The notes: a model not told the origin generated them from the sequence alone. A stretch of 64,000 nucleotides of DNA from Lama glama (GCA_028534125.1 CM052816.1:41542001-41606000); one strand, 5' to 3'; counted from the first letter of the stretch, positions 1,151-42,444 are shown. Made by a program: numbers and translations.

Positions 1151-1159
1151 TAAAAAGAA

Positions 1160-2015
1160 TAGATTTTACTTTATAGAGCCATTTTAGTTTCACAGCAAAA
1201 ATGAGTGGAGGGTACAGAGATTTTCCATATACTCCTTACCCTGTACTAAGGAACAGCTTCCTCTACTATCAAAATCCCTCAACATAGTGGTAAATTTGTT
1301 ATAATCAATGAACCTATATTGATACATCACTTATCACTAAAGTCCATGGTTTATGTTTGGGTCACTCTTGATGGTATATATTCTGTATACGTACTGTGTC
1401 TGCCAATTTTTCTATGCTCTGCCTATTCATCCCTTCTTCCCCCCAAATCCCTGGCAACAATTGATTCTTTTACTGTCTCCATAGTTTTGCCATTTCATAT
1501 AGATGGAATCTTACAGTATACAGACTTTGCTATTTGGCTTCTTTCACTTTGTAATATACATTTAAGTTTCTGCCATATCTTTTCATGGCTTCATGGCTCA
1601 TTTTTTTCTTTCTTAGTACTGAAGTATAACCCATTCACTAGAGGTAACAGTTTACTTATCCCTTGATATATTGAAGAACATCTTGGTCGCTTTCCAGTTT
1701 GGGCAATTATGAATGAAGCATTCATATAAACATTTGTGGGCAGGTTTTTGTGTGGACATGAGTTTCAACTCATTTGAGTAAATACCAAAGAGATTGTAAG
1801 GTAAGAACATGTTTAGTTTTGTATTAAACTACCAAACTGTCTTCCAAAGTGACTCTACCACTTTGCATTTCCACCAGCAATGAGTGAGAGTCCCTGTTGC
1901 TTTATATCCTCACCAGCATTTACTGGTGTGCTTTGGATTTTGGTCACTCCAACCAGTGTTACTGTTTTTTAATTTGCAATTCCTAATGATATATGATATT
2001 CAGCATCTTTTCATA
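1160..2015 (-). mobile_element. LINE-1 3' end fragment (L1MC-like)
   Basis: Resembles an antisense L1MC 3' end ('ttttagtttcacagcaaaaatgagtggagggtacagagattttccatatactcc'); continues into the ORF2 C-terminal signature 'ttgcatttccaccagcaatgagtgagagtccctgttgct'. Confidence 0.75.
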
Positions 2016-2029
2016 TATTTTTTAAAATA

Positions 2030-2670
2030 CTTTTTACTTGCCATTTTGTTTTTTTACTTGCATTTCTCTGGATTACAAATGAATTGGAGCATTCTCTTCA
2101 TGTATCTCATTTGAGTTCCTTCTGTGAATTGCCTGTTCATATAGTTTGACCATTTTTCTATTGCTTTTTTTCTTGTTGATTAATTGTTCTTTAGAGATGC
2201 CAGAAAATTCATCCCTTATTTGTTTATAATATTGTAAATCTCTCCTTCTAATTATTTGTCATTAACTTTTTCATGGTATATTTTACTGAAAAAAATTCCT
2301 AATGATAATCAAATCCATTATCTTTCTTTGCCTTATGGTTTGTACTTTTGGATTTTAATCAAGTCTTTTATCTGCTTATTGTTCACAAAATATTTTCCTA
2401 TAATTATTTTCTGTTCACTTTTTATAGTTTTAGATTTAAGTTTTTAATTCATTTGGAGGCTACTTTGTTCACAGTTTTAAGTTAGAATATAGGTTTCTTT
2501 TTCTCCATTTTGTGACCCAGTTCCCCGAACACAGATAACAGTCCTTCCTGTTTCCAGTGATTCATGGTGTAACCTTTGACATGCATCAAATTCCTGTATA
2601 TACATGACCTGAGTCTAATTTTGTGCTTCCTATTTTGTTTCAAACATCTACTTGTCTGACCACTTTATTA
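2030..2670 (-). mobile_element. Old LINE-1 fragment (L1ME-like)
   Basis: 'ttcttctgtgaattgcctgttcatatagtttgaccatttttctattg'-type and 'tttaagtttttaattcatttgga' motifs match antisense L1 ORF2 3' portion. Confidence 0.6.
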
Positions 2671-3459
2671 ATATCACAAGAGTGTCACTCTATTTAAGCT
2701 TACAGAGGAATTAATGGAAGTATTTTTATATTTTAAATTGTTTTATTCTATATTCCTTATTTTGTAATTAAATCTATGAATACATTTAGAGGTTTTTATT
2801 TACATAGAATCAGAGTCAGAAATTAATTTTAGAATTTGTTTCATATGCTTCACTTAATATATAAGAAAATAGATACACAAAGAGATCAACTGGCTTGCCT
2901 AAGTGGATACAGGCTAAAAGTCAGTAGTAAATATATGTTTCTTAACTTTGCCTCTATATTATAGTTCTGAACATATGTATGATTTATTTGCTTCTGAGAC
3001 TTTGGTTCAATTATAACAGCAAAACATACTTGGCAAAATTAAATAACATCTTTCTCATTTTTGTTCCCACATTACCTTCATTTTGGGGTTAAATCTGGGT
3101 GGGGACAATAGTATTTTTGATAAATTTAGGCAAAACTGACACAAGAGGATGACAGTTTGGTAGAAGTTTCTTGCCATCTCAGCAAGAAATATATGTCTGT
3201 AAAATGAAGTGCTTTCAGAATATGTATTTTCACTATCTTCATATTCACAAGGTGATAAATGCTATCTTATTTATAACTTCTAATTGAAATAGTAGGATGC
3301 CTGAGCAGGTGCAAGTATTTTGCAAAACAGATGCTACTAAAAGGCTCTGGTAAAGATGCATGTAAATATTTAAATGCTTCCAAAGGCCATCTTGTTAGAT
3401 TACAAAAAGTAATCACAATGATATTATTGACTATTTCTTTCATAAGAGACAGGCAAGTT

Positions 3460-4085
3460 TTGATGACTTTGTACTGTGTCAACTTGGCTAAGCTACACTT
3501 CATTCCCTCAAATTCCCTTTATCTGTATGTTGACATTTAGGGCAGGCCACAAGGGAGATTTCTGTGGGGCATTTGGAGGGCAGAGTGAAGCAGCAGCCAT
3601 CTGTGTGTTAGACATCTTATTGATATTTGTTGGCTTATTTGTTGGCTCACCTCCTAGGCCAGATTGCACCTGCCATCCTTACAGTTAGTGTCTCTGAGTC
3701 CTTGACTTGATGAAGGGCCCAGTTTCTGCAGGACACTCATTCCATTAAGGTGAGAGGCAACAAGAATGAACACATTTGTCAGCCTGTTCTCATGGGCTCT
3801 AGCTAATGCTTTTGAGTTTAGGATTGTTCTTACCCTTACTCACTTTACATCCATTTTCCCTTCCCAGCTGTCTGCTACATGGACTTCAAGGTCCAGTATC
3901 AGATGCAAAGTCAACAGCCTAATAGAGACAGCTTAACCAGCTCTCACAATCAATAAGATCAAATTCCTGCACCAAAGCTCCTTTATCTACCTACCTACCT
4001 ACCTATCCATCCATTCATCCATCCATCCATCATCTATCTATCTCCTAGTCAATTCTTATTTTCTAATTAAACTCTGACAATGATA
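3460..4085 (+). mobile_element. ERVL-type solo LTR (MLT2-like) with internal (CCTA)n(CCAT)n microsatellite
   Basis: Starts 'tgtactgtgtcaacttggctaagcta'; tetranucleotide run at ~3985-4042 near the 3' end, as is typical for MLT2. Confidence 0.6.
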
Positions 4086-4289
4086 TTTCTCATTTATTCA
4101 CACGAGTATGATTAAAATGTCCTTTTAAGCTATATTCATTAAATACAGCACATATATATTAAAATTAAAGATTTTTGTTTTTTCCTTTCAAGTTTGGATT
4201 AGACAAATGACTTCTTATTTTTTTTCCTATTCTTATTTGACACTGTTGATCCTTACTTCCCTTGATTTTAAAACTCTGACTGTCATTCA

Positions 4290-4893
4290 TATATTAAGTT
4301 GCACTTTTGGATACAAATAAAGTAACAGAAAATCTTACTCAACTGATTTAAAAACTGAGAAGTTACCTCCCATAGTCCTGAAGTACCTTCTCTCTGGGAT
4401 AAATAACAATTCAGTGACATGACCAGGAATCCAGAATTCTTTCATTTTCTACTCTGCCATTCTTCAGCTAGTTTCCTTCATCACTACAAGGTGGTTCCTG
4501 CAGTTCAAAGAGGAGTAACACTCAGCAGAAAAGGGGAGCTCTTCTCAAGTGTTTTTTCTTAGAAGCAAAGATACCCTTTCCCAGAAGTCTCCACAGAAGG
4601 TTTCCCCTCGTAATTTATTGGCCAGACTTGTGTATATGTATATATGTATGTGTATGCATATGCTTGTACATGTGTGTATACATGTACATATGTGTATATG
4701 CCTAAGCTAATCTATGGCAAGAGGAATGGAGCATGATGATCAGCTTGGATCAATTAGAATTTACCCCTGGAGTTGGCAGTAGTTCACCCTTTTCTGATGG
4801 AAGTGGGGCAACATGGAATAAAACTGGGACTTGGAAAACAAAAACAAAGGAGGAAAAATGCCTCTGAAAGACAAACAAATAATGCCTGCTACA
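4290..4893 (-). mobile_element. MaLR LTR relic (MLT1J/K-like) with (TATG)n insert at ~4628-4700
   Basis: 'aagtaacagaaaatcttactcaactgatttaaa', 'ctttcccagaagtctccacag...ttattggccagact' and the end 'gcctgctaca' resemble an antisense MLT1. Confidence 0.55.
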
Positions 4894-4962
4894 TAGTCAA
4901 TGTTTTATCTTCCTTATCTCAAACCTCTTTCTGTTTGAAATCCTTAAAAAAGTACCAAACTC

Positions 4963-7900
4963 AGAAAGCAATGATTCTAAAGACAGCAAGAGAAAAACAA
5001 AGAGTTACAAGGGAACCCCCTTAAGGCTTTCAGCTGATTTCTCTACACAAACACTACAGGCCAGAAGGGAGTGGCAAGATATAATTCAAAGTCCTGAGTG
5101 AAAAAAAGATGCAACCTAGGATACTTTATCAAGCAAGGCTATTCTTTAGAATAGGAGAGATAAAGAACTTCACAGACAAGCAAAAACTAAGAGTTCAGCA
5201 ACACTAAACCTATCCTAAAAGTAATACTGGAAGTTCTATTCTAAATAGAAAAGAAGCAGGATGCTTCAGAAAGGAGAAAATCGTAACAGGAAAGGTGATA
5301 ACTACCATGAATTACAACAGAATAAATATGAAATTGTAAAAGAGGCCATCTAAATCATTAAGAGTGGGAGAGGGGAGCAAGAAAATATAGTTTTCGTTTT
5401 CTTTTTAAAATTTTTTTTGTTTGAGCTTATATTACTATCTGTTTAAAACAAACAGTTATAGTAATGGGTTAATATGTGTACAAAAAAGGGTAGCCACAAG
5501 AGAAAATCTTACAATAGAATCACAAAAACTTAAAAAAAAAAAACCAAGATAATACAAAGGAAAATTATCAAACCACAAAAGGAAGAAGAAAGGAACAAAG
5601 AGGAAATCCCATATCAACTGCAAAACTAAGTTCAAAATGGCAATAAACACACATCTATCATAAATGTCAATGGACTAAATGCTCCAATCAAAAGACGTAG
5701 ATTGGTAGACTGGTTAATAAAAAAAAAAAAGCCTTCAATAAACTGCATACAAGAGACCCACTTTAGGGAGAAGGACATACATATATTGAGAATGAGAGAA
5801 TAAAAAGAAAGATATTCCACACAAACAGAAATGACAAGAAAGCAGGAGTATCAATACTGATTTCAGACAAAATAGGCTTTAAAACAAAGGCCACAAAGAA
5901 GGACATTTTATAATGATTAAAGGAGTAATACAAGATGAGGATATTACACTCATTAGCATACATGCACCCAATGTAGGAGCACCTAAGTACATAAAGCAAA
6001 TACTAACAGATATAAAGGGAGAAACTGATGGGAATACAATCATTGCCAGAGACTTTAACACCCCATTAACATCACTGGACAGATCTTCCAGACAGAAAAT
6101 AAATAAGGCAACAGAGAAATGATACTATAGAAAAATTAGATTTTGTGAGTATTTTCAGAACATTACATCCTCCCAAAATAGAATATACATTCTTTTCAAG
6201 TGCACATGGAACATTTTCTAGGATTGATCATATACTTGGGTACAAAAGAAGCCACAACAATTTTAAGAAGATAGAAATTATTTTAAGCATCTTTCTGACC
6301 ACAATGCCATGAAACTAGAAATCAACTACAGAAAAACAAAGCAGGAATAAAATGACAGCATGGAGATTAAACAACATGCTACTAGAAAAACCAATGGGTG
6401 AATGATGAAATCAAATAAGAAATTAAAAAACACTTTTGAGACAAACAACAATGAAAACACAACCACACAGAATCTATGGGTGCAGCAAAGGCAGTGCTAA
6501 GAGGGAAGTTTAAAGCAATATAGTCCTTCCTCAAAAAAAGAACAATCTCAAATAAACTACCTAACCTACCAGCTAAAAGAATTAGAAAAGGAAGAACAAA
6601 AAACCCCCAAAAGTCAGCAGAAGGAAGGAAATAATAAAAATTAAGGAGGAAATAAATAAAATAGAGATTAAAAAAACAATAGAAAAAAATCAATCAAACC
6701 AAGAGCTGGTTTTATGAAAGAGTAAACAAAATTGACAAACCTCTGGCCAAGCTCACCAAGAAGAGAAAAGAGAGCACAAATAAGCAGAATAAGAAAGGAA
6801 AATGGAGTAATCACAACCACTACCATAGAAATACAAAATATCATACAAGAATACTATGAACAACTATATGGAAACAAAATGGATAACCTAGAAGAAATGG
6901 ACAAGTTTCTGGAAACATACAATCCACCAAGACTGAATCAAGAAGAAAGTGATCACTTGAACAAACCAATCAATTGAAATGAAATCAAATAAGCAATAAA
7001 AAAACTCCCAAAAATAGAAGTCCAGGACCAGATGGCTTCACTGGGGATTTCTACCAAACATACAAAGAACTCATACCAGTCCTTCTCAAACTCTTCCAGA
7101 AGACTGAAAAGGAGGGAATACTCCCAAACTCATTCCATGAAGCCACCATCACCCTGATACCAAAACCAGATAAAGACACTACCAAAAAAGAAAATTACAT
7201 GCCAATATCATTGATCAATATAGATGCAAAAATCCTCAACAAAATATTAGCAAACAATCTAACAGCACATAAAAGAGATCATACACCATGATCAAGTAGG
7301 GTTCATCCCAGGGACACAAGGATGGTTCAACGTATGCAAATCAATCAATGTAATACATCACATCGACAAGAGAAAGGACAAAAACCACATGACCATCTGA
7401 ATAGATGCGGAAAAAGCATTTGATAAAATTCAACACCCATTTATGATAAAAAAAAAACCTCTCACCAAAGTGGGTATAGAGGGAACATATAGCAACATAA
7501 TAAAAGCTATTTATGACAAACTTACAGCCAGTATAGTACTCAATGGTGAAAAAGTCAAAAGCTTCCCACTAAAATCTGGGACAAGACAAGGTTGTCCACT
7601 CTCACCACTCCTATTCAACATAGTCTTGCAAGTCCTAGCCACAGCAATCAGGCAACAGAAGAAATAAAAGGGATCGAAAGAGGTAAAATTGTCACTATAT
7701 GCAGATGACATGATACTATATATAGTAAACCCTAAAAGGTCCACACAAAAACTAATAGAACTAATCAAAGAATTCAGCAAGGTAGCAGGATACAAGATTA
7801 ACATACAAAAATCAGTTACATTTCTTTACACTAAAGATGAATCAACAGAAAAAGAAAGTAAAGAAACAATTCCTTTTAAAATAGCACCCAAAGTAATAAT

Positions 7901-9750
7901 ACCTAGGGATAAATATAACCAAGGAGGTGAAGCATTTACACATGGAGAACTATAAAACACTGATTAAGGAAATTAAAGAAGACTTTAAAAAAACAGAAAG
8001 ATATCCCATGCTTCTGGAATGGAAGAATCAATACTGTTAAAATGGTCATACTGCCCAAGGCAATCTACAGATTTAATGCAATCCCTATCAAATTACCGAG
8101 GACATATTTCACAGAACTAGAACAAATCACAATAAAACTTATATGGAATCACAAAAGACCCAGAATTGCCAAAGCATTACTGAGGAAAAGTAATGAGGCT
8201 TGAGGAATAATCCTCCCAGATTTCAGACAATACTACAGAGCTACTGTAATCAAAACAGCATAGTATTGGTACAAAAACAGACATATGGACCAATGCAACA
8301 GAATAGAGAGCCAAGAAATGAACCCACAAACTTTTGGTCAATTAATCTTTGACAAAGGAGGCAAGAACATACAGTGGAATAAAGACAGTCTCTTCAGCAA
8401 ATGGTTTTGGGAAAACTGGACAGCAGCATGCAAATCAATGAAGCTAGAACACTCCCTCACACCATACACAAAAATAAACTCAAAATGGATCAAAGACTTG
8501 AACATAAGACATGACACAATAAACCTCCTACAAGAAAACACAGGCAAAACATTATCTCACATACATCTCAGCAATGTTCTCCTAGGGTGGTCTATCCCAG
8601 AAATAGAAATAAAAGCAAATAAACAAATGGGACCTAATTAAACTTACAAGCTTTTGCACAGCAAAGGAAACCATAAGCAAAACATACGGAATAGGAGAAC
8701 CACCTACGGAAGAGGAGAAAATATTTGCAAAAGATGAAACTGACAAGGGCTTGATCTCCAGAATATATAAACAGCTCACATGACTTAATAAGAAAAAAAA
8801 AACAATCCAAAAATGGGTAGAAGACTTAAACAAGCAATTCTCCAATGAAGACATACAAATGACAAATAGGCACATGAAAAAATGCTCAATATCACTAATT
8901 ATCAGAGAAATGTAGATCAAAATTACAATGAGGTATCACCTCACACCAGTCAGAATGGCCATTATGCAAAAGTCCATAAATGACAAATGCTGGAGAGGCC
9001 GTGTAGAAAAGGGAACCCTCCTACACTGCTGGTGGGAATGCAGTTTGGTGCAGCCACTGTGGAAAACAGTATGGAGATTCCCCAAAAAACTAAAAACAGA
9101 CTTACCATATGACCCAGGAATCCCGCTCCTGGGCATATATCCAGAAGGAACCCTACTTCAAAAAGACACTAGCACCCCAATGTTCATAGCAGCACTATTT
9201 ACAATAGCTAAGACATGGAAACAGCCTAAATGTCCATCAACAGATGACTGGATAAAGAAGGTATGGTATATTTACACAATGGAATGCTATTCAGCCATAA
9301 AAATGACAACATAATGCCATCTGCAGCAACATGGATGTCCCTGGAGAATGTCATTCTAAGTGAAACAAGTCAGAAAGAGAAAGAAAAATACCATATATCA
9401 CTCATATGGAATCTAAAAAAGACAGAGAGATAAGACAAATGAATTTAAATACAAAACAGAAACAGACTCACAGACATAGAATAAAAATTTGTGGTTGCCA
9501 TTGGGAAGGAGGGTGGGAAGGGACAGACGGGGAGTTCAAGATTTGTAGATAATGACAGGTATATATAGGATAAACAAGTTTATACTGTATAGCACTAGGA
9601 AATATACACAAGACCTTGTAGTAGCTCACAGTGAAAAAAAATATGAAAATGAATATATGTATATCCATGTATGATGGAAAAATTGTGCTGTACACCAGAA
9701 ATTTGACACAACATTGTAAACTGACTATAACTCAACAAAATTATAAAAAA
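4963..9750 (+). mobile_element. 5'-truncated LINE-1 (~4.8 kb): ORF1 C-terminal remnant, disrupted ORF2, 3'UTR and poly(A)
   Basis: ORF1-like ILKTAREKQRV at ~4975. ORF2 from ATG ~5637 includes an endonuclease piece (ITLISIHAPNVGAPKYIKQILTDIKGE..DFNTPL), RT pieces ([26 protein letters not shown] ~7695) and C-terminal [14 protein letters not shown]. Many stops and frameshifts. TSD aaaaaagtaccaaactc (4946-4962) vs aaaaatgtaccaagctc (9751-9767) at a TT/AAAA site. Confidence 0.97.
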
Positions 9751-9767
9751 AAAAATGTACCAAGCTC

Positions 9768-9925
9768 TCCTTTTTCTCTTCACATATTCTCCCTTGGCAA
9801 TCACATCAACTTTCCTGGCTTTAAGCACTATGTTTCAGAGGTTGGGTTTCACAATATTGCAATGATGATCTCTCCCGAACTCTAGAGTGCTGTTTTTAGA
9901 GGCTCATCGGATATTTTCATGTTTG
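9768..9925 (+). mobile_element. LINE-2 relic between the L1 and the ERV
   Basis: 'ttctcttcacatattctcccttggcaatcacatcaactttcctggctttaa' and 'ctctcccgaactctaga' resemble L2 3' consensus. Confidence 0.45.
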
Positions 9926-10424
9926 TGTCACCAACAAAGCACATAACAATTCCAGGGGAATGAAAACAGAACCTATGCTTAGTCTAGTTTCACTTGCTTA
10001 TAGGGTGCTGTGTGCAGAGATTCTGCAGCCAGCACTTCAGACCGGAGTTCCTAGTGTGAAATGGATGCAGACAGCACTTCAGCTGGGTGGGCCATGTACA
10101 GAAGCACTGCACAGGAAACGTTAGGATGGCAGTGGCATACTGTGTGCAAAAATGCTGTCCCTGGCACTTGGACTCAGAGTGCTGTGAGCAGCAGAGCTAT
10201 GCCTGACCCCCAAGAACTCTGCCTCTTCCCTGCTGACAGGAACCCTATAAAGCAGCCCCACCAACAGCCTTTCAGGGAGAGCCTGTGCTCTAGAGTGTGA
10301 GCTCACACCTGTCCGTTCTATGATCAAAGAATAAAGCTTTCCTGTGCTTCTGATCCAAACTCTGTCTCATTCTATAGGCACGAGCCACACCTGGCAGAAT
10401 GACTGTAGCTGGGGACCAGAAACA
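9926..10424 (+). mobile_element. 5' LTR of provirus
   Basis: TG...CA ends; TATAAA 10246-10251; AATAAA 10330-10335; followed by the PBS. Confidence 0.85.
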
Positions 10425-10430
10425 AGTTTT

Positions 10431-10448
10431 TGGCAACTATGAAAGGAC
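10431..10448 (+). other. Primer binding site, tRNA-Arg type
   Basis: tggcaactatgaaaggac matches the Arg-type PBS tggcgaccacgaagggac of ERV9/HERV-W at 14/18 (recalled sequence); two mismatches are CpG transitions. Confidence 0.75.
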
Positions 10449-11836
10449 TGAACATCGGCCTTCCACCTGCGCCCACCCACTAGGCTCCGCCCTTGCCCCA
10501 GCTCTGGCAGGAGGATGGCAGAGGCTTTGGGAAGTTTGTGTGAAGATGACTGATCACACTCTGATGGGATGAAATGGTGGCAGCCTTCAGCTGAGTTCAG
10601 AGCAACTCTGCCCAGCAACCTGATAGCCTGGTGTGGTGCACACAGAGCCTGGAGAGTATCCTGGACTGTATCCCCTGGAGAGGATCATACTGTGGCATTG
10701 CTGGGGATCACCGGCTGAAACTCACAAGTGTCTGCCCGCTGCCTCTGGCTGGCCATCCCACAGTGCCTGATGGCCTGGGGATGGTGGGGACTTGTGGGAG
10801 GGGAGAAGCTGTGGCAGCCTTGCCCGCTGTCTCACCAGTAGTGCCGTCCTCTTGACCTCTGTACAAGGCAACCGTGGCTGCACCAGGGCTTTTGCCATTC
10901 TTGCCAACGTCCAGGGGTCAAAAGTAACATTCTTCATAGCCACGTCCGATTCGGTAAAGGGAAGTGGCCAGCCCCACTAGGCGGGAGGTGGAGATCAGGA
11001 AAAGGCCCAGGTAATGAGGACCACCTGACAAATGGAACGAGGACGCTGGATCCAAGTTTAGGAAAGGACACCGGGGACACCTTGGTGTGAAAGGGTCCCA
11101 AGGTAGATACATGACCAGTGACTTGATCTCCCTTCCAGTCAGCACTATGCTCTCTGGAGTAAGCTGGGCATCCCTGTGAGCTGCTGGCAAGAGCAAGAAA
11201 CACCTATTGCCTGGCCTCTCCTTCCATCTCTCTTCCGAGTCTTCCACCCGGCCTGCCTTTCTAACCCTCCACGCTCCTGCCTGCTTCTGCTTGTGAGGTG
11301 AACCTAGGGTGATTCTTTATTGATTGAGGTCCCACAGGCTCTCCTCCCAGTGCCAGCACAAAGCATCAGCCCCCGCAGTGATCTGGGGAGTACCCTGTGG
11401 GAATCCCTCGCACTTTTAGCTCTCACCTAGCAGGAAGTCTGAAAACTCCTCCTTTTTGGCTGAAAGGAAGAGAGAGAGGACCCCTGCCTTAGACAACTGC
11501 CACTTCCTAAGAGACAGGCTGGTCACGGACTGACGTGGCTAAGCTGCTCTGACCCGTCTAACCTCCTGTAGGATATTCTGACTGAGGAGGGACTAAATGC
11601 CTCAAGCACGGGCAATTGGGCCATTACAAATTCAGAGGTTATATCAGAGTCCACGCCACTTGGATACCTCCTATTTGGGTCTTTTCAGAAAACCACTAAC
11701 AGTTTGGTGCTCATTTCAAATTTCCTGAACCAGAAATCTTAATTTGGGTCAAACCTTGTGGCATTTGCATGCCAATAAATCACTCCAACCATCCTCTCAG
11801 TAGTTGGAAATAAATTCAAAGCAGAACACCTAAGGT

Positions 11837-12110
11837 ATGGGGACCCAAACACCCACTATACTAAAGGATAGCCCATTAGGGTGCACCCTGAAGAACTGGA
11901 ACTCTTCCCAGTATTACTACCTGACTTCAAAACATTTAACCTTCCTACATAATACAGCCTGGCCTCAATGCTAGCTGGGAGATGGGGAAAGCTGGCCCAT
12001 CAATGGCCCTCTAATTTACAACACCATTTTACAATTGGACCTGCCATGCCAGAGACAAAATAAACGAGATGAAATTCCCTATGTCTGTTTTTTTATGGCC
12101 TTATATCAGA
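11837..12110 (+). pseudogene. ERV gag matrix remnant
   Basis: Translates across frameshifts to MGTQTPTILKDSPLGCTLKNW...NTAWPQ..GESWPINGPLIYNTILQLDL..DEIPYV.FFMALY, an HERV-H/W-like MA pattern. Confidence 0.85.
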
Positions 12111-12194
12111 ACAAAGGATGTCAAAAGGGATGTGGGCTCTCCTCCTCTGTGGTAATATCTTCCTTGACTCTCCCTCATCTCTTCTGAAACTACA

Positions 12195-14400
12195 AGACAG
12201 CCTGGGGTTGGCCAGGTTTTGCCACATTCGGATCCCTACCTATGGCCTAAGAGAAAGACCTCTGTATGAAAAGTTCAAAGGAAAGGATGCTAATCCTTTT
12301 GAATGGAATTTGGAATATGATAGGGCCTTTCAAAACTGAAAAAGCAGTTACTTCAGGCCCCTGCCCTGGCCCTCCCCAACTTAGCTAAACCCTCTGACCT
12401 CTACTTTCACAAGAGAAGGGGAATCATTCTTGGGTTATTACCTCTAAAAGTAGACCCCTTTATTCCACTGGTTGCTTATTTTTCTAAACAATTAGATCAA
12501 ACCATTAAGGGACAGCCTCCTTTCCTACAGGCGGTAGCAGCTACTACCACCCTGCTAAAGGAGGCTGAGAAGTTAGCATTTGCTCAGCCAGTCACTACAT
12601 GGATTCCACACCAGGTTCAGACTTTAGTAAATTCTAAGGGAACAGAATGACTATCCCCCAAAAGGTCGATTCAAGTTCAGGCTATGCTTTTAGACAACCA
12701 GTAGCTACCAAAGAAAACCATCACATGCTAAAATCTGCGACCCTGTAACCCATAGAATCGCCCCCGACCCCAACCCCAGAGTGCGATTATATAGAAACCA
12801 GAGATAGGATCTATTCCTGACCTAGGAAGTGAACTTCCCTCAAACACGGAAGAAGAATGGTTCATAGACAAGAGCAGTTTTACGAGAGAAGGAAAAAGGC
12901 TGGTGGGATACACAGTGACCTCCAGACCCAAGTCACAGAGGCACGAAGCCTACCCCAAGGGACTTCTGCCCAAAAGGCAGAGCTGATAGCCCTCACTCGA
13001 GCCTCAGAGTTCAGGACAGGGAAGATCTTAAATGTTTACGCAGACTCCTGGTAGGCATTTGCCATCCAGGAGTAGGCGTGCACACGGGGTTATTTAGAAG
13101 GAAAGAGGTACACATACTGCAGAGAATAAACAGGTGAAACGGTTTAAGCACACTGAAGTTCTTAGAAGCAGTACAACTTCCAAAAAAGGTGACAGTGATT
13201 CACTGTAGGGGTCACCAAAAGGGAAATGCAGAGGTAATAAAGGGAAAAAATGAGGCAGACACAATTGCCAAAAGGGCAGCCTTAGGACTAGCAACTTGGC
13301 AACAACCCCTCATACATGGAAGGCCAGATCCATCCAATTACTCCCCAATTTACACAAAGGAAGTATCAGATAAAGCCTGAAAATGAGACTTCACTAGAGA
13401 TCTAGGAGGCCATGGGTGGCTCGTTACTGAACACTGGCAAACCCTTTTCCCCCAAACTTCAGCTCATCAAGTCATCAGGGAGGCCCATCAAGGAACTTAC
13501 ACAGAAGGGAGGACCCATATAACTAGTTAGCTGGGGTCATGGTAACTCTAGGCATGAAAAATATAATCGGTCGGATGGCTGAGACATGCCCTATCTGCAC
13601 AATAAACAGCCCCAACTCCAGACCCCCAGAGGCCCATTCAGACCAGAGGGACATATCCTGGGAAGACTGACAGACTAATTTCACTGTTGGGTATCTTTTG
13701 GTGCTAGCAGACACATTTTCAGGGTGGGTAGAAGCATTCCCTGCTAGAACTGAAACGGCAGCTGAAGTGGCTAAGGCAGCAAGCACCAAGAGAAATAATC
13801 CCCGTATTTGGACTCCTAGGATCCCTATGAAGTGTTAAGGATCAGCATTCGTGTCCCAAGCAACAAAAGGGATAAGGAGTGCACTGAGCATAAAATGGGC
13901 CTTGCACTTAACCTAGAGACCCCAATCATCTGAGGAAGGAGAGATCCAACCATACCTGAAAGCAAACCTTAGCCAAGCTATGTCAGGAAACTCAAGAAAA
14001 CTGGATTAAGTTATTCTCAATTGCTCTGCTCCACATGCAGTTAGCTCTAAGAGATAAATTAAAGTTATGTGCGTTTGAACTTATGTATCCCCATTCCCCA
14101 AGCACAAGAGAAAGGACACCTCAGCCCCCTAGGAATGGAACAACTCAGCATGCCCTCCAGCTAAGAGAAACAATGAAAGGTCTCACAGAATATGGTAACC
14201 AGGTGTTGTCTGCACCCACCAACCTGGCCCTCCATCCCTTCTGTCCAGGACACTGGGTGTATCTAAAACCCTGGAAAACCAGCAGCCTGCAAGACCGACT
14301 CACTCTAAGTAGAATGAACCCCATTTGGTGATCCAAACTCCCTCGTCCTGCTCTGAAGTTGCACAGGATACTCTGTGGGTACAACACACTCAAATGAAAA
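12195..14400 (+). pseudogene. ERV pol remnant (RT thumb/tether, RNase H, integrase)
   Basis: LGLARFCHIRIPTYG..PLYEK; APALALPNLAKP; AYFSKQLD; TSAQKAELIALTRA..NVYADSW; VIHCRGHQKG..NEADTIAKRAAL; LLVLADTFSGWVEAFPARTETAAEVAKA. Disrupted. Confidence 0.92.
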
Positions 14401-14499
14401 GGGTCCCCGAGCCCAGCCTCTGGAGAGACAACCTGGGACAAAGACCCCCTTAACTACTGATGTGAACATCTGTCTCTAATCTGAAGCTGCTCTTCCAAA

Positions 14500-16100
14500 A
14501 AACAACAAAAGTGTAACCAGTATTAAAGAGAAAAACACAGCTAGGCAGGGTACCTCGATGCCCTAGAAAGACCCTACACACACCTATATGGATGAAACAC
14601 CAGGGTACCAGCCCTTCAAGAACTCAAGTTAATGGCACAGGGCTGATGTGTTTACAAAAAGGATACATGTTCTTAGGTAAGCCCCAAACTCAAGGATAGG
14701 CTGGGCATCCCACCAAGGGAAGGGGCTGTATCACCAGTGGAACAGTGGGACCAGATCCGAGCCTGGTTAAAGTTTACATTCAGACCACTAACAAAAAAGA
14801 GAAGCTACAACATTCCAGAAGAGCAGCAGGACTACTAACTGCAGGAATCACTGCACTTACGGGGCACCAGTGACCTTGGCCAGGGAAACCATATATAGCA
14901 CTGTCATCATAAAAAAAGGTAACAGCCACTGTGGCAACAGTGACCAACGAGACTGGCCTTGACTTCACACTATTACAAAAGTCCACTGACTCACTGGCCA
15001 GTATGGTCCTGGATAACCAAATAGCTCTAGATTATGTTAGCTGACTGGGGAGTGGGGGAGTGCTTGTGCACTGGCCAATACGTCGCAACTGAAGAAAGCA
15101 CAGAAAGCTACTAGAAAACGCAACTTGGCTGGCAGAAACCAGGCAGCCAAACAATAGTGGAGTAAGGTAAAACAGGTCCTCCCTGGTGTCACTAGGTTTT
15201 TACCTTGGCCCATTAATGAAAATTACTCTCTTGCAAATATTTGGGCCATGCACCCTAAATTATCTGGTGTCCTTCGTCTTCAAAAGTTTTATGGAATGGA
15301 GCAGAACCCTATGGGGCCTTCCCAGAACAGACCCTCCTCCCTTAGTGTCCCCCCACCTGCCTCTTGATTGTAGAAAACCTTCAGCCTCCTAGGCTTTCTT
15401 TGAGTTCCAAAGACTAAATTTAATCAGAGAAGTGTGAAAATGCAGAAACAATGGAAAATAGTCAAGCAAAACAAAATAATAATAGTTCAGCCATTAAACA
15501 AAGTCAAGGACTGTTAGTTCCTCCTCCTCAAGGGCCATAGATATTCTGAGCCATGTTGAGCTGTTTTGCAGAGACTGAAAGCCCACCAGGTGGAAGAAAT
15601 TAACTGCATGCTGATTAAACAAGCACAGAGATCCAGACTGGTTGGAACCAGGTTAATGTTGTTGACTCCCAAAATACCACCCTGTTATGTCACCGTCAAC
15701 TTGTCAGAAGTCCACGAACTGATAACGCACCCCGCAACCCTCTCCCTCACCCTGTCTTTAAAAATCTTTCCCTAAAAGCCATTGGAGAGTTCAGGTCTTT
15801 TGAGCATTAGCCTCCAGTATGACTTGCTTGGCCCTGCAATAAATGTTGCACTTCCCTTTACCACAACATGGTACCAGTGGATTGGCTTTACTGCACCAGG
15901 AGAGTGGATGCAAGTCTCGTTCGGTAACAGAATCTATAAAACTCCAAATGGTGGTCGCGCAGAGGTGCGAACAGTCAGCACTAAGACACGGCGAGAACCA
16001 AACAGACCTAAAGGCAGCTGGGAAGCAGCTCTGCTCCTCCACCCAGGTTTATGAGGACGTCCAAACTCAGCAGGAATTAGTTTTCAAAAGACGAACCTGC
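14500..16100 (+). pseudogene. ERV env remnant, mostly TM, interrupted by a solo LTR
   Basis: SRRA/AGLLTAGITAL cleavage and fusion-peptide-like stretch ~14812-14865; immunosuppressive-domain-like DSLASMVLDNQIALDY ~14988-15035; LQIFGPCTLNYLVSFV; tail ESIKLQMVV resumes at 15930. Confidence 0.85.
15297..15929 (+). mobile_element. Solo LTR of a second ERV1 family (resembles MER41-like artiodactyl LTRs)
   Basis: Begins tggagcagaaccctatggggcc (5' boundary uncertain by ~5 nt), has AATAAA near 15838 and ends gttcggtaaca; 'gaat' occurs at both junctions; splits env. Confidence 0.8.
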
Positions 16101-16147
16101 GCCCTTCGGCACACCTCAGGAATGAGGAGCAGGACAAAAGACGGACT

Positions 16148-16690
16148 TGTCACCGGCAAAGCCCAATAACAATTCCCAGGAAATAAACAGAATCTGGGTA
16201 ATAAAATAAAGTCTAACCTTTCTTTTCCCTTGGAGCTTCGTCTGGTGTAACTTGCTCACAGTGTACCACCGGCAGACGCCTTGCACTCGGAGAGACGGCT
16301 ATGCCGGCGCCTCAGCTCCCCTGGCCCTGCGGAGACGCTGCACACGGCCCTGCAGTGCAAGATGGCGGCAGACGCATGCGCAGAGGCGCTGCACCTGGCG
16401 CTTCAGTCCGGCGTGAGAGCGGCTCAGCGGCGCCCCGCCCGCGCGAGCTCCGCCCCTCCCTGCCCGCTGGTGAGAACCCTGTAAAGCCTCCACAGCTGTG
16501 CGGCACCCACGAGACTCCGCCCTGCTCTGCTGTGAAGCAGCCCTGCCCACGGCCTTCTGAGATCTCGGTCTCTGTAGTCCGTGCTCATGCCTCTTCATTC
16601 TAGGTTAACTTTGCTTCTGAACTGAACTCCCTCTCCTTCTCTTGCTACAAGCAGTCCTGCGCAGAATGACCCTTGCTGGAGACCAACACA
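16148..16690 (+). mobile_element. 3' LTR of provirus (CpG-rich)
   Basis: Collinear with 9926-10424 at both ends and in the core; preceded by purine-rich aggaatgaggagcaggacaaaag. Confidence 0.85.
16260..16590. promoter_or_regulatory. LTR-derived CpG island / candidate promoter
   Basis: About 31 CpGs in 330 bp (hand count); YY1 motif caagatggcggc 16358-16369; NRF1-like gacgcatgcgca 16371-16382; GC boxes at 16433-16440, 16448-16456 and 16515-16522. Confidence 0.7.
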
Positions 16691-17479
16691 AGAGGATCGG
16701 TAGCAGTTGTCTTCTAGCCCCCTAGGCCTGTTTAATTTAGCAACCCGTTTTCTTCCCTCAAATCTTTTCTCCACATCTCAGTTTCTGCAGAACTTGTTTT
16801 CCGGTCAGTAGAATTCTAGTTAATTATGGTTTTACTCTATGAGTAATGTGAAAATAAGATGCACAAACAAAAACAAGACACCACCTCATCTGTATTTCTT
16901 CATTCCTTTTAGCATTTGGGTAAGTATTTTTATTTAGCATAGAATTCGTGATAGTCTTTTGTTCCAGAAAGAAGGTGGAAAGAGTACAAGTTGTCAGAAA
17001 GTGAGGTCAGACTCCTTCCTGCTCTCTGCCTTGGGCTTCTCACCTCTTTGCTCCATTACAGTTTACTTTTCTTATGTGTAGGTTATCTTTTGAAACTGTC
17101 ACTTGTTCTCTCACTCCTAGAATGCAGAGGGTTCCAAAGTATCCTTCCTATTTTAATTCTAGCCGCCGAAACTATAAAATGTCAATATGGATGGGCAAAT
17201 TCTTTAAAGAAGAGATTGAAATTTACTTATGTAACTAATAATGTTAATTATATTTGAATTGATAACATAATAAATACAAATGAACACATGCTAATATTTT
17301 AATATGATTGTTGGCAAATCTCTACTTGAGCATGAACAACTGGCTCTAAAAATGTTTGAGACGCGTTGGTAATCATACATGTAGTACATCTAGTTATCTG
17401 GTTGCTCTGGTCACTCACTTGTCTTCTAAACGTGCTCTCCAAGCACAGGGGAGATTCTTAAGGCCAAGTTTGTTCTTTG

Positions 17480-17540: not shown

Positions 17541-18295
17541 CCAGAGATTGACTTATTTTAAGGCATTGGCTCATGTGAATGGTGAGGCTGGCAAATCTAA
17601 AGTTCTTATGGCAAGCCTGCAGCCTGGAAAGTGAGTCAGGGTTTCTATGTTGCAGTCTGGATGCAAAATTCTTTTTTCTTTGTGAAACCTCAGTCTTTGT
17701 GTTAGGTAGTTTAGATAGAAATGAGCACTGGGCAGGGGGAGAGAAAGGAGAAAGGGACAATCCAGAACGCAAGGAACCTGCGGTGTCAGTTAACCAGGGC
17801 GCAGGGAACATGAGCTGTCAATCACCCAGAGCACAGGGAACCTGAATTGTCGATCAATCAATCACGAAACCAGGATATAAAAACAGGAAAAACAAAGGAA
17901 TGGTGACATTTTTCCTCTCTTAGATCGGCCTGCTCCCAGTTCTTGGGAGTGTACTAGCTTCCACTATTTTTTTTTTAATTTCACTAATAAAAATCTTGTT
18001 CATATCATGCTTTTTGTCTCTCGTCAAAAATTCTTTTTTTTCGGATCACTAAGAATGGAGGTAATTCTTATTTCCCTTTTCCTGGTAACATTTGCTCTTA
18101 AGGTCTCTACAGCTGCTTGAATGAGGGCCACCCACACTATGAGGAGACAGGGGGTCATCTGCTTTATTCAGTGTCTATTGATTTAAATATTAATCACATC
18201 TAAAACATACCTTCACAGCAACATCTAGACTGGTGTTGACCAAACACCTGGGCACCATAGCCTATAAAAGTTGACCCAAAATTAACTGCCGCTGT
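17480..18295 (-). mobile_element. MLT2B-like ERVL LTR with (TA)n at ~17508-17536, split by a solo LTR
   Basis: 'ttttaaggcattggctcatgtgaatggtgaggctggcaaatct' ... 'accttcacagcaacatctagactggtgttgaccaaaca' resemble antisense MLT2; halves rejoin across 17700-18094. Confidence 0.8.
17700..18090 (+). mobile_element. Solo LTR (391 bp, probably ERV1 class)
   Basis: tgtta...taaca inverted termini; perfect 4-bp TSD tttg (17696-17699, 18091-18094); tataaaa near 17876; aataaa near 17986. Confidence 0.88.
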
Positions 18296-18438
18296 GGCCT
18301 TGCCATTCCTTGGCCTTAGCTAATTGGAAAAAGATGCACACTTTAGACAGGACTAATCACGTTTCTCTCACGGGATGTATTCTGAGAGATGCAGGGACTC
18401 TTGTGGGTCTTTGTTGATCCCTTGACCTAGAAAGTTAT

Positions 18439-18680
18439 TTTTTTTAATTGAGTTATAGTCAGTTTACAATGTTGTATCAATTTCTGGTGTACAGCATAAT
18501 TTTTCAATCATACATGAATATACATATATTTGTTTTCATATTCTTTTTCACCATGAGCTACTACAAGATCTTGAATATATTTCCCTGTGCTCTACGTTAT
18601 AAACTTGTTTATCTATTCTACGTATACCTGTCAATATTGATAAATCTCAAACTCCCAGGCTGTCCCTTCCCACCCCCCTC
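18439..18680 (-). mobile_element. Short L1 3'-end insertion, same family as 4963-9750
   Basis: Reverse complement of the L1 3'UTR (~9510-9745); perfect TSD cctagaaagttat at 18426-18438 and 18681-18693. Confidence 0.9.
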
Positions 18681-18939
18681 CCTAGAAAGTTATATATATC
18701 AGTTGTCTTTAAAGGAACATAAGAATGAAGCAGGCACACAGAGAAGCAAAATCAAGAGATGGCGCACACTCAGAGCAGCCCAGTGAATTCTCTTATAGGG
18801 CTCAGCTGTATTTTCTGCTCTTAGATTTTGTGATAATATCAGATTTTTTTTCCAAATGAAAACTTTTCTATTTATTTGAGTGAGTTTATATTCTTTACCA
18901 CAAAGTCATCCCTAAGATACCATTTTCACATACCATGTT

Positions 18940-34150: not shown

Positions 34151-34662
34151 CAGTAACGTGGGCCACGCCACCAGTGCCTAGAGCTCTTACAGTGCCAGAG
34201 CTTGCCGGAGGCCCGTGGTGCCGCGCAGCAGATGCCTGCGGCCATCTGGGGTTATGGTTGCTTATCTGGCCTAAGCTGGGCGGGAGAGACCACTCCCTGG
34301 GGAATATAAAGTCCCCAAGAACAGATGGAACGATAACGCTGTGCTTCCACCAAGGGGACCTGTGAAGTAGAGGAAACAGCCTGCAGAGTGAGCGAAAAGA
34401 GAGTGTGTGTGGAGTCAGGGGCAGAGGTGAGACCCTAACCACTTTCCGGACTCTGTTTCCAGCCTTGTGCGCCTGGCGCCGCTCCTGCCCTAGAGTCCGC
34501 ACGATACTCTGTGACCTTACAATCAGCGCCTCCTTTCCCCCTTGTGCTTGAAGTCACTCCAATTAGATTTTGTTGATTGTAGCAAGCTCTTGATCCCTTC
34601 TTACTCCCTGAATGTCTTAGGGGCATATAACACATTTTAATAGCAAATATATAAAAGAGGGA

Positions 34663-38679: not shown

Positions 38680-41483
38680 ATTCCACAGCATGGTATGTAT
38701 TTATTTTTCTAGCATAATAATTTAAAGTATTTACACACTGCACACTCACTGTTTTACACAGATACTTATTCATATACCTATGAACCACATCTAAAGGTTT
38801 CTTTGCAAAGACTCGACACACTGCGGGGGTTTCCAAGCATAACAAAGAGAAGGAAAGGACAAAAAAATGTTCTGAGTCTTTTAAAGACAGCCATGTGGAG
38901 CATCTGTGAAAACCAGTGTTTTCCCACAAGTTTTAAGCTCCCCCAGAAGACCTTTGAACAACTACAGCCTACCTACGTGTTGGTATGACCCGAAACTCTT
39001 CTGGTTAAGGAGGATTTCGAAAACCAATGTCCAAGTAGCATTTTCTTTAGACATTCTAGAAAAGAAACAAGAGACGATAAACCAGGCCCTTCTCAAGAGA
39101 AATACCAGTATTTCTCATACAGTTATCTGCGGGCATGACTGCATCATACAGGGACACTGATTATACAGGGGGAATAGCTAAACTCACTGGTACTAACCGT
39201 AGTGATGAAGAGGACGCTTGTAAGCATCCTTTCCAGGAAAATGATATGGCAAAACCACCCAATTTCCTTTTCTCAGCTGTGAATAGAGGTGGTTGTTTTG
39301 CTTTCCCTGACAAGGACAAAGGTATATTAATCATATACACTCTAAACCCAGATACTGTAGAAACATCTACTATTATTTTTACTTCACTTTTAGACTATTT
39401 GCACAAAAATAGTGGTTAGAAGTACCCTAAATACTTTTCCTTCTTCATTCTACTCAATTACATAACAAAATCACCAGCTAACTATAGCTTCTGAACCTGG
39501 CACGTGGTTCTGTAGGTGAACAAAAGCAGTCACAGTTCAGAGCTGATGGAAGGTAGGCCCCCCAGTCCAGCCTCTATAAAAGGGTAACAGGTTTAGGTTT
39601 CAACTCTCTGGCACTGCATTCTTAGTAAGAAGCAGGACACCTTCACAATTTTCCCAAACAGGTCAAGACTACTCTCTCATGTACCAGAAGGTTGAGAGGT
39701 TTGCTGCCTCTGGATGCATCCACAGCTCCATCCTGTGACTGAATGATAGGTCAGCTCACAGAGAAACAGAACTTCACAGAATGACACCCTCCTTTCCTGC
39801 CAGTCTGGGCCTCTGGCAGTGCCATATCAACAGCTATCTGGCCAACTAAAACCAAGCACAGTCTTGACCCAAACTGCTAAGTATTGAAAGTTCATTAATT
39901 TTTGCTTGCATTTATGTAAATGATTAAGGGAAAGGACACATTCTATCACTTCTTCTTGGAACCAAACATTTACATTTTAGATCTAACAATGTAAACCTAC
40001 CCATCCTGCAGTTCACCATCTCACTGTGCTTGCCTTTTGCTGGTGCTGCTTTCCTTTTGCAAGAGATGCCAACAATGCAATGAAAGAGGCAAAGAGATAA
40101 GTTTACTTTACAGTGATTTCACCAAGTTATGTGAGCAACTGACTATATAATATTCACCTACAGACGTTAAGAGGGAGAATAACTGATTACACAAAGACAC
40201 CACCTGGGGTGCAACGCTGCCCAACGAGAATGTCTGGACTAACCTGCACCCAGAGTTAGCTGCGTACGGAGTCAGGCCAAGGAAGCTCTTCTGTCTTGAA
40301 TGCCCTAGTCCATTTCATCATGCACACAGATTCATCAAAAACTGTAAGACCATGGTGCAAAGGGCAAAGAAGAGTGGAAAACTTGGTGATAGGATCTCGG
40401 CCTTGATATTAAAGAAAGAACCTAACAAACCCCAGTCCCTGGGCTCCTAAGGTGAGACTGGGTAGGGCTTATTGGAGTGGACCCTGGGAACAGTGTGTTT
40501 CTGGGCCCAAGAACCATGGAAGTGAAGGCTAAGAACGTGGGCTTGAACAAATTACAGAGGTAAGAAAAAGGCCTGATTACTAAACTTATGTTTTTGCAGT
40601 TAGTTTGTTCAAGGCAGAATAGAGTTAAAAGAGAGGAAAAGCTACAGTTTAAACAGGGGTATGGGATGACAAAGTCCGGGAGCTACTGGGGTCTAGCAAT
40701 GCCTGGTATTTATCTATGAAATTGCCATTGCCAGCCCCTTTTGACCTATAAAAACAGCAGTTTCATATGGTTCAACCTACCATACTCTTAAGTGCTGAGC
40801 TATAACAATCATTCCTAGTTACTAAGAACTGTATTAATATTCTCCCCACCTTCTGAGAAAGTGACAGCTCTTAAAGAGGGAGAGGGCTTCCTAGAGATCA
40901 GTGTTTAACAGCACCAAAATCACCCGAAGAGGGGTTAACTGTCCTTCCAAATCAAGTGGGGGCAGAAGAAGGGGGTGAAGACCTAGCTCAAAGGAACGAG
41001 GCGGCTGCACTTGGAGGCGGCAGGTGAGAGCCGCACGTGTGGCGATGAGCAGCAGCAGGAAAGGACAGGAGGGCGCAGCCAAGAAGAGCCACAGACAACG
41101 TCGCCGATCACCTTCAGAGGGAACGCTGCATATGATGTCTGTGCATAGGTACTGTATACATACTAACCAGGTACACACATAAATATTTAATATATAAAAA
41201 ATAAAGTGCTTTCTAACAGGTCCCAGGAAGGGACATTATAAAACATTTCACAAAACTGCAAAACAAAATCGATACAATCAAAGAACACTACATCCAACAT
41301 ACGTGAGAACAGTCAAACACAATATGTACAATCAGGTGGGTGTCCCAGGACAAACATCCTGCCATATACATGGTATATACATATATACTCTTTTACTCAA
41401 TATATTATGACAATATATATTTTAAAATTTTGTTACAGACAAAAAAAAATTAAAATAAAAAAGAAAAAAACAGAAGACAACCC
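38680..41483 (-). other. RGMB: RGMB 3'UTR (inferred)
   Basis: Stretch between stop codon and poly(A) signal with no recognisable repeats; contains AU-rich, Pumilio and miRNA seed elements. Confidence 0.55.
38700..38705 (-). terminator. RGMB: Probable RGMB poly(A) signal AATAAA
   Basis: tttatt on plus strand; GU-rich downstream tract on minus (tgtggaatgtttgttctgtg, ~38688-38669); ~2.8 kb past the stop codon. Confidence 0.6.
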
Positions 41484-42152
41484 CTACAAAGACACAATAA
41501 GGATCAAGCAGGCGAGTCCTAGACTGACAGACACACAGCTGCTGCCGCGGGGGGCGCCCCGGCTGCTGCTGGGGAAAATGTGCCAGCGCTCCTTCCTGGG
41601 GTGCAACGCCTCCACATCCTCCAAGGCACTGTGGGCTGCGGCGGTGAAGTTGGCGTCGCCGGTGGTGAGCAGGTCAAAGACACAGGACTGGAAGTAGATG
41701 TCCTTCACCGGCATCTTCTCGTGGCACTGCGCGTTGGCGCTCTCCAGTGTGTAGCCCGGCCAGGCCGGGGCCGGGGAGGAGCGGGGCGGGCTGTGTCCCA
41801 GGATGGCGGACACCTGGCCCTGCCCGTCGTCGATGCGCTCGCTCAGGGGGCAGCCGTTCACGCACAGCTGCAGGTCCTGGCTCTCCTCGTAGGACATGGC
41901 CAGGTCTTCGGGCATGCGGATGGCCAGGGTCAAGTAGCGACCCAGCTGCCGCACGAACACCGTGGTCCCTATGTAGCGGGCGTGCATCTCCACGTAGCGG
42001 CCACTCTCCCTCTCCACGATGCGCAGGCTCTTGGCGTCGCCGTCCCCACCACTGGTGCTGCCGTCCACAAAGGCGGCCGGCAGGTCATCTGTCACAGCTT
42101 GGTACACCTTCTGATCGGTGCACTCAGGGTGGGCTTTGAAGATAATCGTGAT
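41484..42152 (-). CDS. RGMB: RGMB last coding exon (C-terminal domain and GPI-anchor signal)
   Basis: Acceptor ttcccacag|ATC; ITIIFKAHPECTDQKVYQAVTDDLPAAFVDG...CVFDLLTTGDANFTAAAHSALEDV...hydrophobic tail; TAG at 41486-41484; 669 nt. Confidence 0.97.
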   Translation of the reverse strand: MTIIFKAHPECTDQKVYQAVTDDLPAAFVDGSTSGGDGDAKSLRIVERESGRYVEMHARYIGTTVFVRQLGRYLTLAIRMPEDLAMSYEESQDLQLCVNGCPLSERIDDGQGQVSAILGHSPPRSSPAPAWPGYTLESANAQCHEKMPVKDIYFQSCVFDLLTTGDANFTAAAHSALEDVEALHPRKERWHIFPSSSRGAPRGSSCVSVSLGLACLILIVSL

Positions 42153-42444
42153 CTGTGGGAAGCAATGCGTACAAAGTTTAACACGAGGGCAGGACCATAG
42201 GATGGTCCACGCCTCCAGAGCAAGAGTTGAATGGCTCCATTCTGGAGTCGAACGGCTGGAGAGACAATCTCCAAACTCAGCCCATTTGCTCCTGCCTCAC
42301 AGGTGAATGGCGTCACTGTTAGGGAAAATTCTAAGTCCTGTGTATTTACAATGAAAATTTTAACAGAGATCCTGGGAATGTGCAACAGGAAAAATTTTTT
42401 CTTTACTTTCCTAAGAACAGTGCTGCTGTTGGGATAAAAGCAAT

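Follow-up and report, generated by a model that had tools for sequence, protein, structure and literature searches.

The 3′ LTR region of an old provirus, lying within the 64-kb window (the whole stretch of llama DNA analysed here), qualifies by its composition as a CpG island of TE origin, apparently an orphan one, for which its own 5′ twin serves as an internal control (Table 1). The history that we regard as probable is that the 3′ LTR escaped germline methylation during most of its existence while the 5′ twin decayed; GC-biased gene conversion (gBGC) possibly added to the difference. A CpG island of TE origin is a known kind of feature, and an uncommon one for so old an LTR. The sequence-only reading that this analysis follows up had described the 3′ copy as an LTR apparently turned into a TATA-less CpG-island promoter and as long unmethylated in the germline; the unmethylated-copy part of that interpretation is supported, one of its motifs, a STAT6-type site, falls away, and the caveat about GC gain attached to it applies in part.

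Table 1. Features of the provirus, the CpG island and the neighbouring gene (positions counted from the first base of the window)
Feature	Position	Strand	Details
5′ LTR, CpG-depleted (4 CpG)	9926..10424	+	TATAA 10246, AATAAA 10330; U3 units near 10011, 10093, 10143
Primer-binding-site-like 18-mer, begins TGG, just past LTR	10431..10448	+	From the sequence
Leader segment resembling an extra ~50-base piece of the 3′ LTR	10460..10506	+	CCGCCC box kept outside the island
gag matrix remnant with stop	11837..12127	+	52% identical to residues 1-96 of gag P0002 (E 2e-22)
pol remnant: RT connection and RNase H, stops/frameshifts	12330..13287	+	Weak Pfam PF17919, PF00075 (E~0.04)
env transmembrane remnant, stops/frameshifts	14640..15278	+	30% to ERV-V2-like env P0005, E 2e-17; PF00429 E 0.008
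Putative nested LTR-like insert within env	15292..15929	+	Inferred bounds, left end 15292 or 15433; TG...CA ends
Apparently orphan CpG island, 200-bp rule	15865..16641		777 bases, GC 57%, o/e 0.73, 45 CpG; 500-bp rule also satisfied
Presumed env tail / 3′ untranslated region, 10 CpG	15930..16147	+	Purine-rich tract 16118-16146 adjoins 3′ LTR
3′ LTR, 34 CpG	16148..16690	+	U3 units near 16283, 16329, 16374; altered TATA 16480; poly(A) signal lost 16601/16602
YY1-type 12-mer	16358..16369	+	p=0.0004; decayed 5′ LTR counterpart near 10122
NRF1-like 8-mer	16372..16382		p=0.012
Three GC boxes (16435, 16450, 16517)	16435..16522	-	p=0.015 for three or more
Strong splice-donor-like site, 230 bases beyond LTR	16917..16926	+	GGTAAGT occurs 2 times on the plus strand of the 64 kb
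Neighbouring RGM gene, last exon and 3′ end	38700..42296	-	PF06534 E 7e-70; poly(A) signal 38705

Anatomy and age of the provirus

Judged by the order of its parts, the stretch 9926-16690 is a decayed, internally deleted gammaretrovirus-like (class I) provirus. The order LTR-PBS-gag-pol-env-PPT-LTR runs along one strand, with the PBS and PPT judged by eye and the former presumably of an Arg-like tRNA type, and the remaining gag, pol and env pieces are all disrupted by stops or frameshifts. Capsid, protease and most of RT are absent; the relative of the gag remnant is a p30-bearing gag, the rest of which has no significant match downstream of the matrix portion, so that these parts appear to have been deleted. 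A search of the PDB with the gag piece gave no match. The RNase H piece is closest to MLV/XMRV chains (E 2e-9 to 1e-7, in 9 of 13 rows), which relates pol to the gammaretroviruses, and a stretch between RNase H and env, which we take from a motif to be integrase-like, had no database match, the homologue-search query there being mostly off-frame. A long leader follows the 5′ LTR, and the segment of it listed in Table 1 matches its 3′ LTR counterpart with a local score of 126, compared with 78+/-8 for shuffled sequence, and none of 500 shuffles equalled it.

Similarity to env ends at 15278, and a separate insert seems to take up 15910-15929 along with about 640 bases upstream of them, with a TSD that is at best 3/4. 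The segment between this insert and the 3′ LTR, taken by likeness to be the env tail, had no database match and carries a reading frame open for 73 codons, whereas the env body is badly broken. Since internal tail and purine tract are joined to the 3′ copy, it would be a true 3′ LTR, unlike a solo LTR. We take both flanks of the provirus to resemble one L2 element; the joined flank gave no significant L2-like match within the window, where only an L1 end was matched. Pattern scans for LTR copies elsewhere returned none in viral contigs and five in metagenomes that matched the pattern only, and protein-led scans for related LTR DNA found none. Ten pattern matches in bacterial genomes were set aside as chance on their titles.

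Non-CpG columns between the two LTRs mismatch at 26% (K2P 0.33), which corresponds to about 75 million years at a slower mammalian rate of 2.2e-9 per year. At the camel mutation rate of 2.5e-8 per 5-year generation (PMC8605555), the same divergence gives about 33 million years.

The two ends of the provirus read TTTG and AGAG, bearing out the earlier remark that no shared TSD is recognisable; a TSD may have vanished with age. Its absence weakens the claim of a single integration and gives room to a chimeric or replaced 3′ end, in which tail and 3′ LTR would be younger or of another subfamily, acquired through recombination between two proviruses or ectopic gene conversion, at a locus that is itself methylated. 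Such an origin would fit the non-CpG divergence of the LTRs and their several large indels, the start of the CpG-rich tract near the end of the nested insert, and the open tail frame, and ectopic conversion between LTRs is described as common (PMC4921805) and has been reported for camelid LTR elements (PMC8605555). Nevertheless, we consider it improbable: an LTR that had replicated recently should, we infer, still carry an intact TATA and a poly(A) signal in R, neither of which the 3′ copy has, CpGs are also raised in that half of the unrelated insert which lies next to the island (p=0.035), and the window contains no second close LTR copy. As to the history preferred here, the missing TSD counts against it, as does the open tail frame, a weak hint of a younger tail; in its favour, a 3′ LTR that is joined to the tail and has no R-region poly(A) signal is unlike a fresh solo insertion.

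Probable CpG decay in one LTR and retention in the other

Direct counting gives 4 CpG in the 5′ LTR (GC 50%, o/e 0.13) and 34 in the 3′ LTR (GC 59%, o/e 0.73), exactly the numbers that had been counted by hand, and the contrast of CG with TG+CA between the copies is strong (Fisher p=2e-7). The copies are clearly homologous, with a local score of 546 against 119+/-19 (maximum 200) in 200 shuffles, and are roughly 70% identical (63-72% over 438-458 columns in 11 alignments). Across these alignments, TG or CA stands opposite 17-20 of the 26-30 aligned 3′ CpGs and CG opposite none or one, compared with 16-20 of 23-30 control GpCs retained. The proposed pattern of CG in the 3′ copy facing TG/CA in the 5′ copy is therefore the majority in 11/11 alignments, and the three sequence pairs once quoted for it are present. 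Only 207 columns are common to a set of seven LTR alignments because the U3 of either copy contains three diverged repeats spaced about 45-80 bases from one another (unit scores 76-86, shuffle maxima 54-60), and pairing in the middle of the LTR thus varies with the alignment.

A measure free of alignment points the same way. The TG+CA o/e of the 5′ core (9990-10245) is 1.73, higher than in all 249 bins of 256 bases in the window, while that of the 3′ core is 1.40, so the 3′ copy may itself have decayed for some time. CCG persists in three of the four related GC-box segments, one of which is the leader copy that lies beyond the island, and CTG occurs only in the 5′ LTR. Together with the TG+CA excess of the 5′ core, this suggests that the ancestral LTR was CpG-rich. 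These observations support different histories for the two LTRs, with long germline hypomethylation of the 3′ copy as the best reading. To this extent the earlier proposal of an unmethylated germline copy holds, and the simulations described below also favour it; it is weakened by a gain of G and C outside CpGs.

Such a gain, which had been named in advance as grounds for refutation, is partly present. Non-CpG positions with A/T in the 5′ copy facing G/C in the 3′ copy number 47 in the main alignment, compared with 29 in the reverse direction; over the 11 alignments the figures are 43-58 and 26-42 (p 0.03-0.19). The skew is concentrated in the island core (27 vs 12 in 16261-16480, p=0.024); it disappears in 16481-16690 (13 vs 13) and is weak across the 207 stable columns (18 vs 14). 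It thus falls in the U3 repeat region, the likeliest place for misalignment, and the skew is unpolarised. We read the gain as an addition to retention and not as its refutation, because hypomethylated promoter-like regions host PRDM9-independent hotspots and gBGC (Joseph et al., 2024; PMC11161765).

To weigh these possibilities, 45,000 LTR pairs were simulated from random ancestors under five models, using assumed human mutation rates and flat priors. Of the best 100 fits, 59 came from a model with an unmethylated 3′ copy and gBGC, 18 from an unmethylated 3′ copy only, 13 from a late switch, 10 from methylation with gBGC and none from methylation of both copies; together, the three in which the 3′ copy is unmethylated account for 90/100. 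A random forest (classifier accuracy 0.70) gave 0.52, 0.28, 0.15, 0.05 and 0 in the same order. Within the simulated models, equal methylation of both LTRs is excluded; there is a strong preference for a 3′ copy free of methylation and a mild one for a contribution of gBGC. When indels and realignment were included, P for the observed skew was 0.07 if gBGC was left out (435/900 runs kept) and 0.65 if it was included (535/900 runs kept); a P of 0.07 does not reject retention alone. According to the best fits, 54% (gBGC) to 76% (no gBGC) of the present CpGs would still be original. Models of two sequences do not tell whether the 3′ end escaped in place or diverged during replication and was inserted later. 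A sequence-context test, in which 5′ A/T faced G/C at 0.25-0.29 in CpG-forming contexts and 0.20-0.28 in others, was dropped as a case against retention; a retention-only simulation gives 0.28 vs 0.23 (P=0.42).

The skew across alignments and in the core could also come from a methylated locus exposed to long or repeated strong gBGC from sequence-directed (PRDM9-type) hotspots, with closed chromatin and with island and motifs as by-products, the model behind the 10 fits just given. This would require B near 2 throughout the history of the locus, and PRDM9 hotspots are short-lived. GC is not elevated in the flanks (0.41 right, 0.40 left), and the random forest assigns such a model 0.03-0.11. 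A methylated locus shaped by gBGC is therefore very improbable in our view.

The island, its motifs and its possible use

The island peaks in a core at 16261-16530, with a GC content of 71% and 28 CpG. Beyond the LTR border, the env tail has an o/e of 0.68, and its 10 CpGs exceed expectation from the internal region (p=0.0004), where the best stretch of 218 bases has 7. The earlier claim that CpG retention extends into the env tail thus rests on a real excess, except that its first bases, 15910-15929, appear to be insert and not env. Within the nested insert, the half far from the island has no CpG and the nearest half has 6 (p=0.035), and the island probably also covers this near half; the result is weak because LTRs are naturally uneven in CpG. 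Since the CpG excess crosses the borders of elements, the effect looks positional and not a matter of element age. The island lies 22 kb from the 3′ end of an RGM gene (presumably RGMB), as marked by its minus-strand poly(A) signal and in agreement with the distance given earlier, and 44 kb from the RGM promoter island (o/e 0.92).

The YY1-type, NRF1-like and GC-box matches all fall within 165 bases of the 3′ LTR. The motif definitions used are our assumption, and all motif p-values come from 5000 dinucleotide shuffles and are uncorrected for the number of motifs tried. On this basis, these three members of the motif set proposed from sequence exceed chance, and the fourth, a STAT6-type TTC-N4-GAA at 16173, is at chance level (p=0.09) and was dismissed. 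Decayed counterparts of the motifs in the 5′ LTR suggest that they were inherited from the virus and not newly built. The degraded TATA and missing R-region AATAAA described for the 3′ LTR are both found, as a TGTAAA at 16480 (TATAA at 10246 in the 5′ copy) and as a 14-15-base gap at 16601/16602, where AATAAA is expected; three AATAAA lie upstream in U3, at 16182, 16200 and 16205. Their loss is little informative, because about 0.16 changes per site alter a 6-mer in about two thirds of cases.

Beyond the LTR, the donor-like site at 16920 is a lead, a candidate end of a plus-strand first exon. The YY1 match has the orientation that is usual just downstream of a start site, and together with the donor-like site it hints at plus-strand starts. 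These features, the clustering of the motifs and the loss of the poly(A) signal would be compatible with a stronger claim than the preferred history makes, that the 3′ LTR is a selected, exapted lncRNA promoter or an enhancer for RGM or the next gene on the other side, and so old an island would require steady protection. Its non-CpG distance from its twin is, however, about that expected from neutral decay. LTRs account for 0.2% of human TSS-bearing CGI bases (You et al., 2025; PMC12582260), and CpG-rich repeats have been found to become unmethylated by composition alone, with Pol II gained at only 20% of them (PMC5001583), so an island free of methylation is not necessarily an active promoter. 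Exaptation is possible and on balance rather unlikely.

Protein-coding use of the island was rejected: none of eight ORFs of the region was in the protein collection, and for the longest, a 100-aa ORF at 16301-16603, no relative was found. A search for structured RNA (Rfam) gave two matches, both far below the gathering score. In an expression check of 15930-16900 by 93 words, 14 of 24 rows were RNA or guessed RNA (5 studies) and held 0.09-0.25 of the words, 12 of the 14 being flagged as small shares; such shares carry no position or strand, DNA carry-over or related-species origin is not separable in them, and they were set aside as evidence of transcription. Six unlabelled rows (2 studies) contain 0.86-0.97 of the words, which suggests that the sequence of 15930-16900 is real, though one row may be the source itself.

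An island confined to the germline, unmethylated in sperm (sufficient for CpGs to survive) and methylated in oocyte or soma, would liken the 3′ LTR to a germline DMR or to an LTR promoter restricted to the testis. We judge this clearly unlikely, since YY1, NRF1 and Sp factors are ubiquitous and fit a constitutive island. Its small size and an o/e below that of the RGM promoter island lean toward germline restriction, as does the report that overlap with retrotransposons is more frequent for HMRs of sperm than for those of somatic cells (PMC5793779).

Germline methylation history shapes CpG o/e (PMC5793779), and the preferred history, in which the 3′ LTR remained unmethylated, can be laid out as follows. 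The entering LTR would have been CpG-rich and already equipped with sites of the YY1, NRF1 and Sp types. Methylation of the 5′ copy and of the internal region would have let their CG decay to TG or CA, and the 3′ copy would have escaped, leaving its CpGs to mutate at near-ordinary rates. The inherited sites and the CpG density likely hold this copy open, and the open island probably draws PRDM9-independent recombination, by which extra G and C would be fixed; about half to three quarters of the present CpGs would be original. The 3′ LTR would then act as a TATA-less, probably bidirectional, promoter-like element.

Significance and comparison with known systems

On the question of how new CpG islands originate, You et al. 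(2025; PMC12582260) argue that CpG islands are preserved host DNA. The decayed LTR and the island LTR form a natural paired experiment, with the same start, the same age, a distance of 6 kb and opposite fates. If the single-insertion reading is true, position can decide between silencing of an LTR and an island fate, and the CpG asymmetry of twin LTRs suggests a simple genome-wide screen. A bolder account, of a dated birth of a host CpG-island promoter, would have the 3′ copy escape methylation early after an insertion tens of millions of years ago, lose TATA and poly(A) signal, become a self-reinforcing hotspot and end as a conserved lncRNA start or act on RGM. We think this account unlikely; if true, twin-LTR asymmetry would serve generally as an alignment-internal clock with which to find and date new islands, and the locus would be a counterexample both to islands as ancestral host DNA and to CpG loss in old TEs before co-option. 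As a single locus known from sequence alone, it changes nothing yet for RGM or camelid biology. A literature search, judged from titles and the starts of abstracts and mostly outside subscription journals, found no paper on the locus.

As a provirus, the element shares with class I ERVs an MLV/XMRV-like RNase H, a p30-gag-like matrix, an ERV-V2-type env and U3 repeats. It differs in being internally deleted and fully broken, and its placement is at class level. With LTR-derived promoters of host genes and lncRNAs, such as that of the LTR-initiated ZDBF2 transcript (PMC12129452), it has in common an old LTR, promoter motifs and host genes nearby; those promoters have mapped transcripts, whereas here a 3′ LTR that has lost TATA and poly(A) signal is recognised by its sequence.

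Joseph et al. (2024; PMC11161765) describe PRDM9-independent hotspots and stronger gBGC in regions that are hypomethylated in the germline, and the locus shares with these hotspots a narrow peak of GC and CpG at promoter-like sequence and, tentatively, a non-CpG W-to-S skew in its core. Their evidence comes from substitutions polarised in species trios, whereas the skew here is borderline (P=0.07) and lacks polarisation. Neither the main text nor four supplementary files of that paper name camelids, and further datasets may list them.

Orphan CpG islands are proposed to arise by insertion of a TE with a CpG-rich promoter or by gBGC (Kocher et al., 2024; PMC11170920). The island described here likewise appears intergenic, and both proposed routes are in play. 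That study masked repeats, which excludes islands borne by LTRs, whereas here the island is the LTR; the present locus also has its decayed twin as an internal control. Finally, LTRs contribute 1.3% of CGI bases in the survey by You et al. (2025; PMC12582260), where TE islands are tied to young elements and CpG loss is reported for older TEs located at regulatory elements. The 3′ LTR resembles those TE islands in being an LTR that satisfies CpG-island rules, and differs from them in that, despite its age (K of about 0.33 relative to its twin), it is still an island.

An extra piece in the 3′ LTR and its likeness to the leader

The 3′ LTR carries an extra piece of about 50 bases that is without counterpart in the 5′ LTR and has a short AAGC repeat at both of its borders. 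A stretch of the leader, a short way after the primer-binding-site-like 18-mer, is similar to this piece, with a score that was reached in none of 500 shuffles. The extra piece could be either an old internal repeat that is now missing from the 5′ LTR, or the product of a template switch.

Features in and around the provirus (window positions)
Feature	Position
Left flank	1-9925
Left L1 3′-end-like copy	9504-9753
Leader stretch	10460-10506
gag matrix remnant	11837-12127
Part of the env remnant matched by P0004 and P0009	14870-15111
LTR-like insert (left bound putative)	15292-15929
AATAAA of the insert	15838
Extra 3′ LTR piece	16487-16534
Right side used for CpG comparison	17201-40000
LTR-like stretch	17700-18090
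32-base tandem repeats	17762-17857
Right L1 3′-end-like copy	18435-18682
GC-rich patch	34329-34638

Other repeats and the CpG level of the flanks

Within the env tail of the provirus lies a second LTR-like insert with its own AATAAA, a TAACA end and at most a doubtful target-site duplication, and no further copy of it was found within the 64-kb window. About 1 kb to the right of the CpG island, an LTR-like stretch holding three 32-base tandem repeats, a TATA-like GGATATAAAA and an AATAAA is probably another solo LTR. The provirus is also bracketed by two L1 3′-end-like copies, which are mutually inverted and 84% alike; the right copy has matching TAGAAAGTTA at either side, resembling a target-site duplication.

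The observed/expected CpG ratio is 0.08 to the left of the provirus and 0.23 to its right. Because the left flank is rich in L1, this step may be an effect of composition; alternatively, it may mean that a methylation-domain border coincides with the provirus. Farther right, ∼4 kb downstream of the poly(A) signal of the minus-strand RGM gene, is a small GC-rich patch with 10 CpG (observed/expected 0.49).

Relatives of the env and gag remnants

In protein comparison, the env remnant matches P0004 and P0009, unnamed proteins predicted by gene callers in public assemblies, at 78-92%, and their frame shifts coincide in place with those of the remnant. Such matches suggest either that related animals carry orthologues, or that the family would have spread with its env already broken. 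For the gag matrix remnant, the best named relative (53%) is a walrus protein labelled NCR3LG1-like (P0001); NCR3LG1 is a host gene with a gag-derived part.
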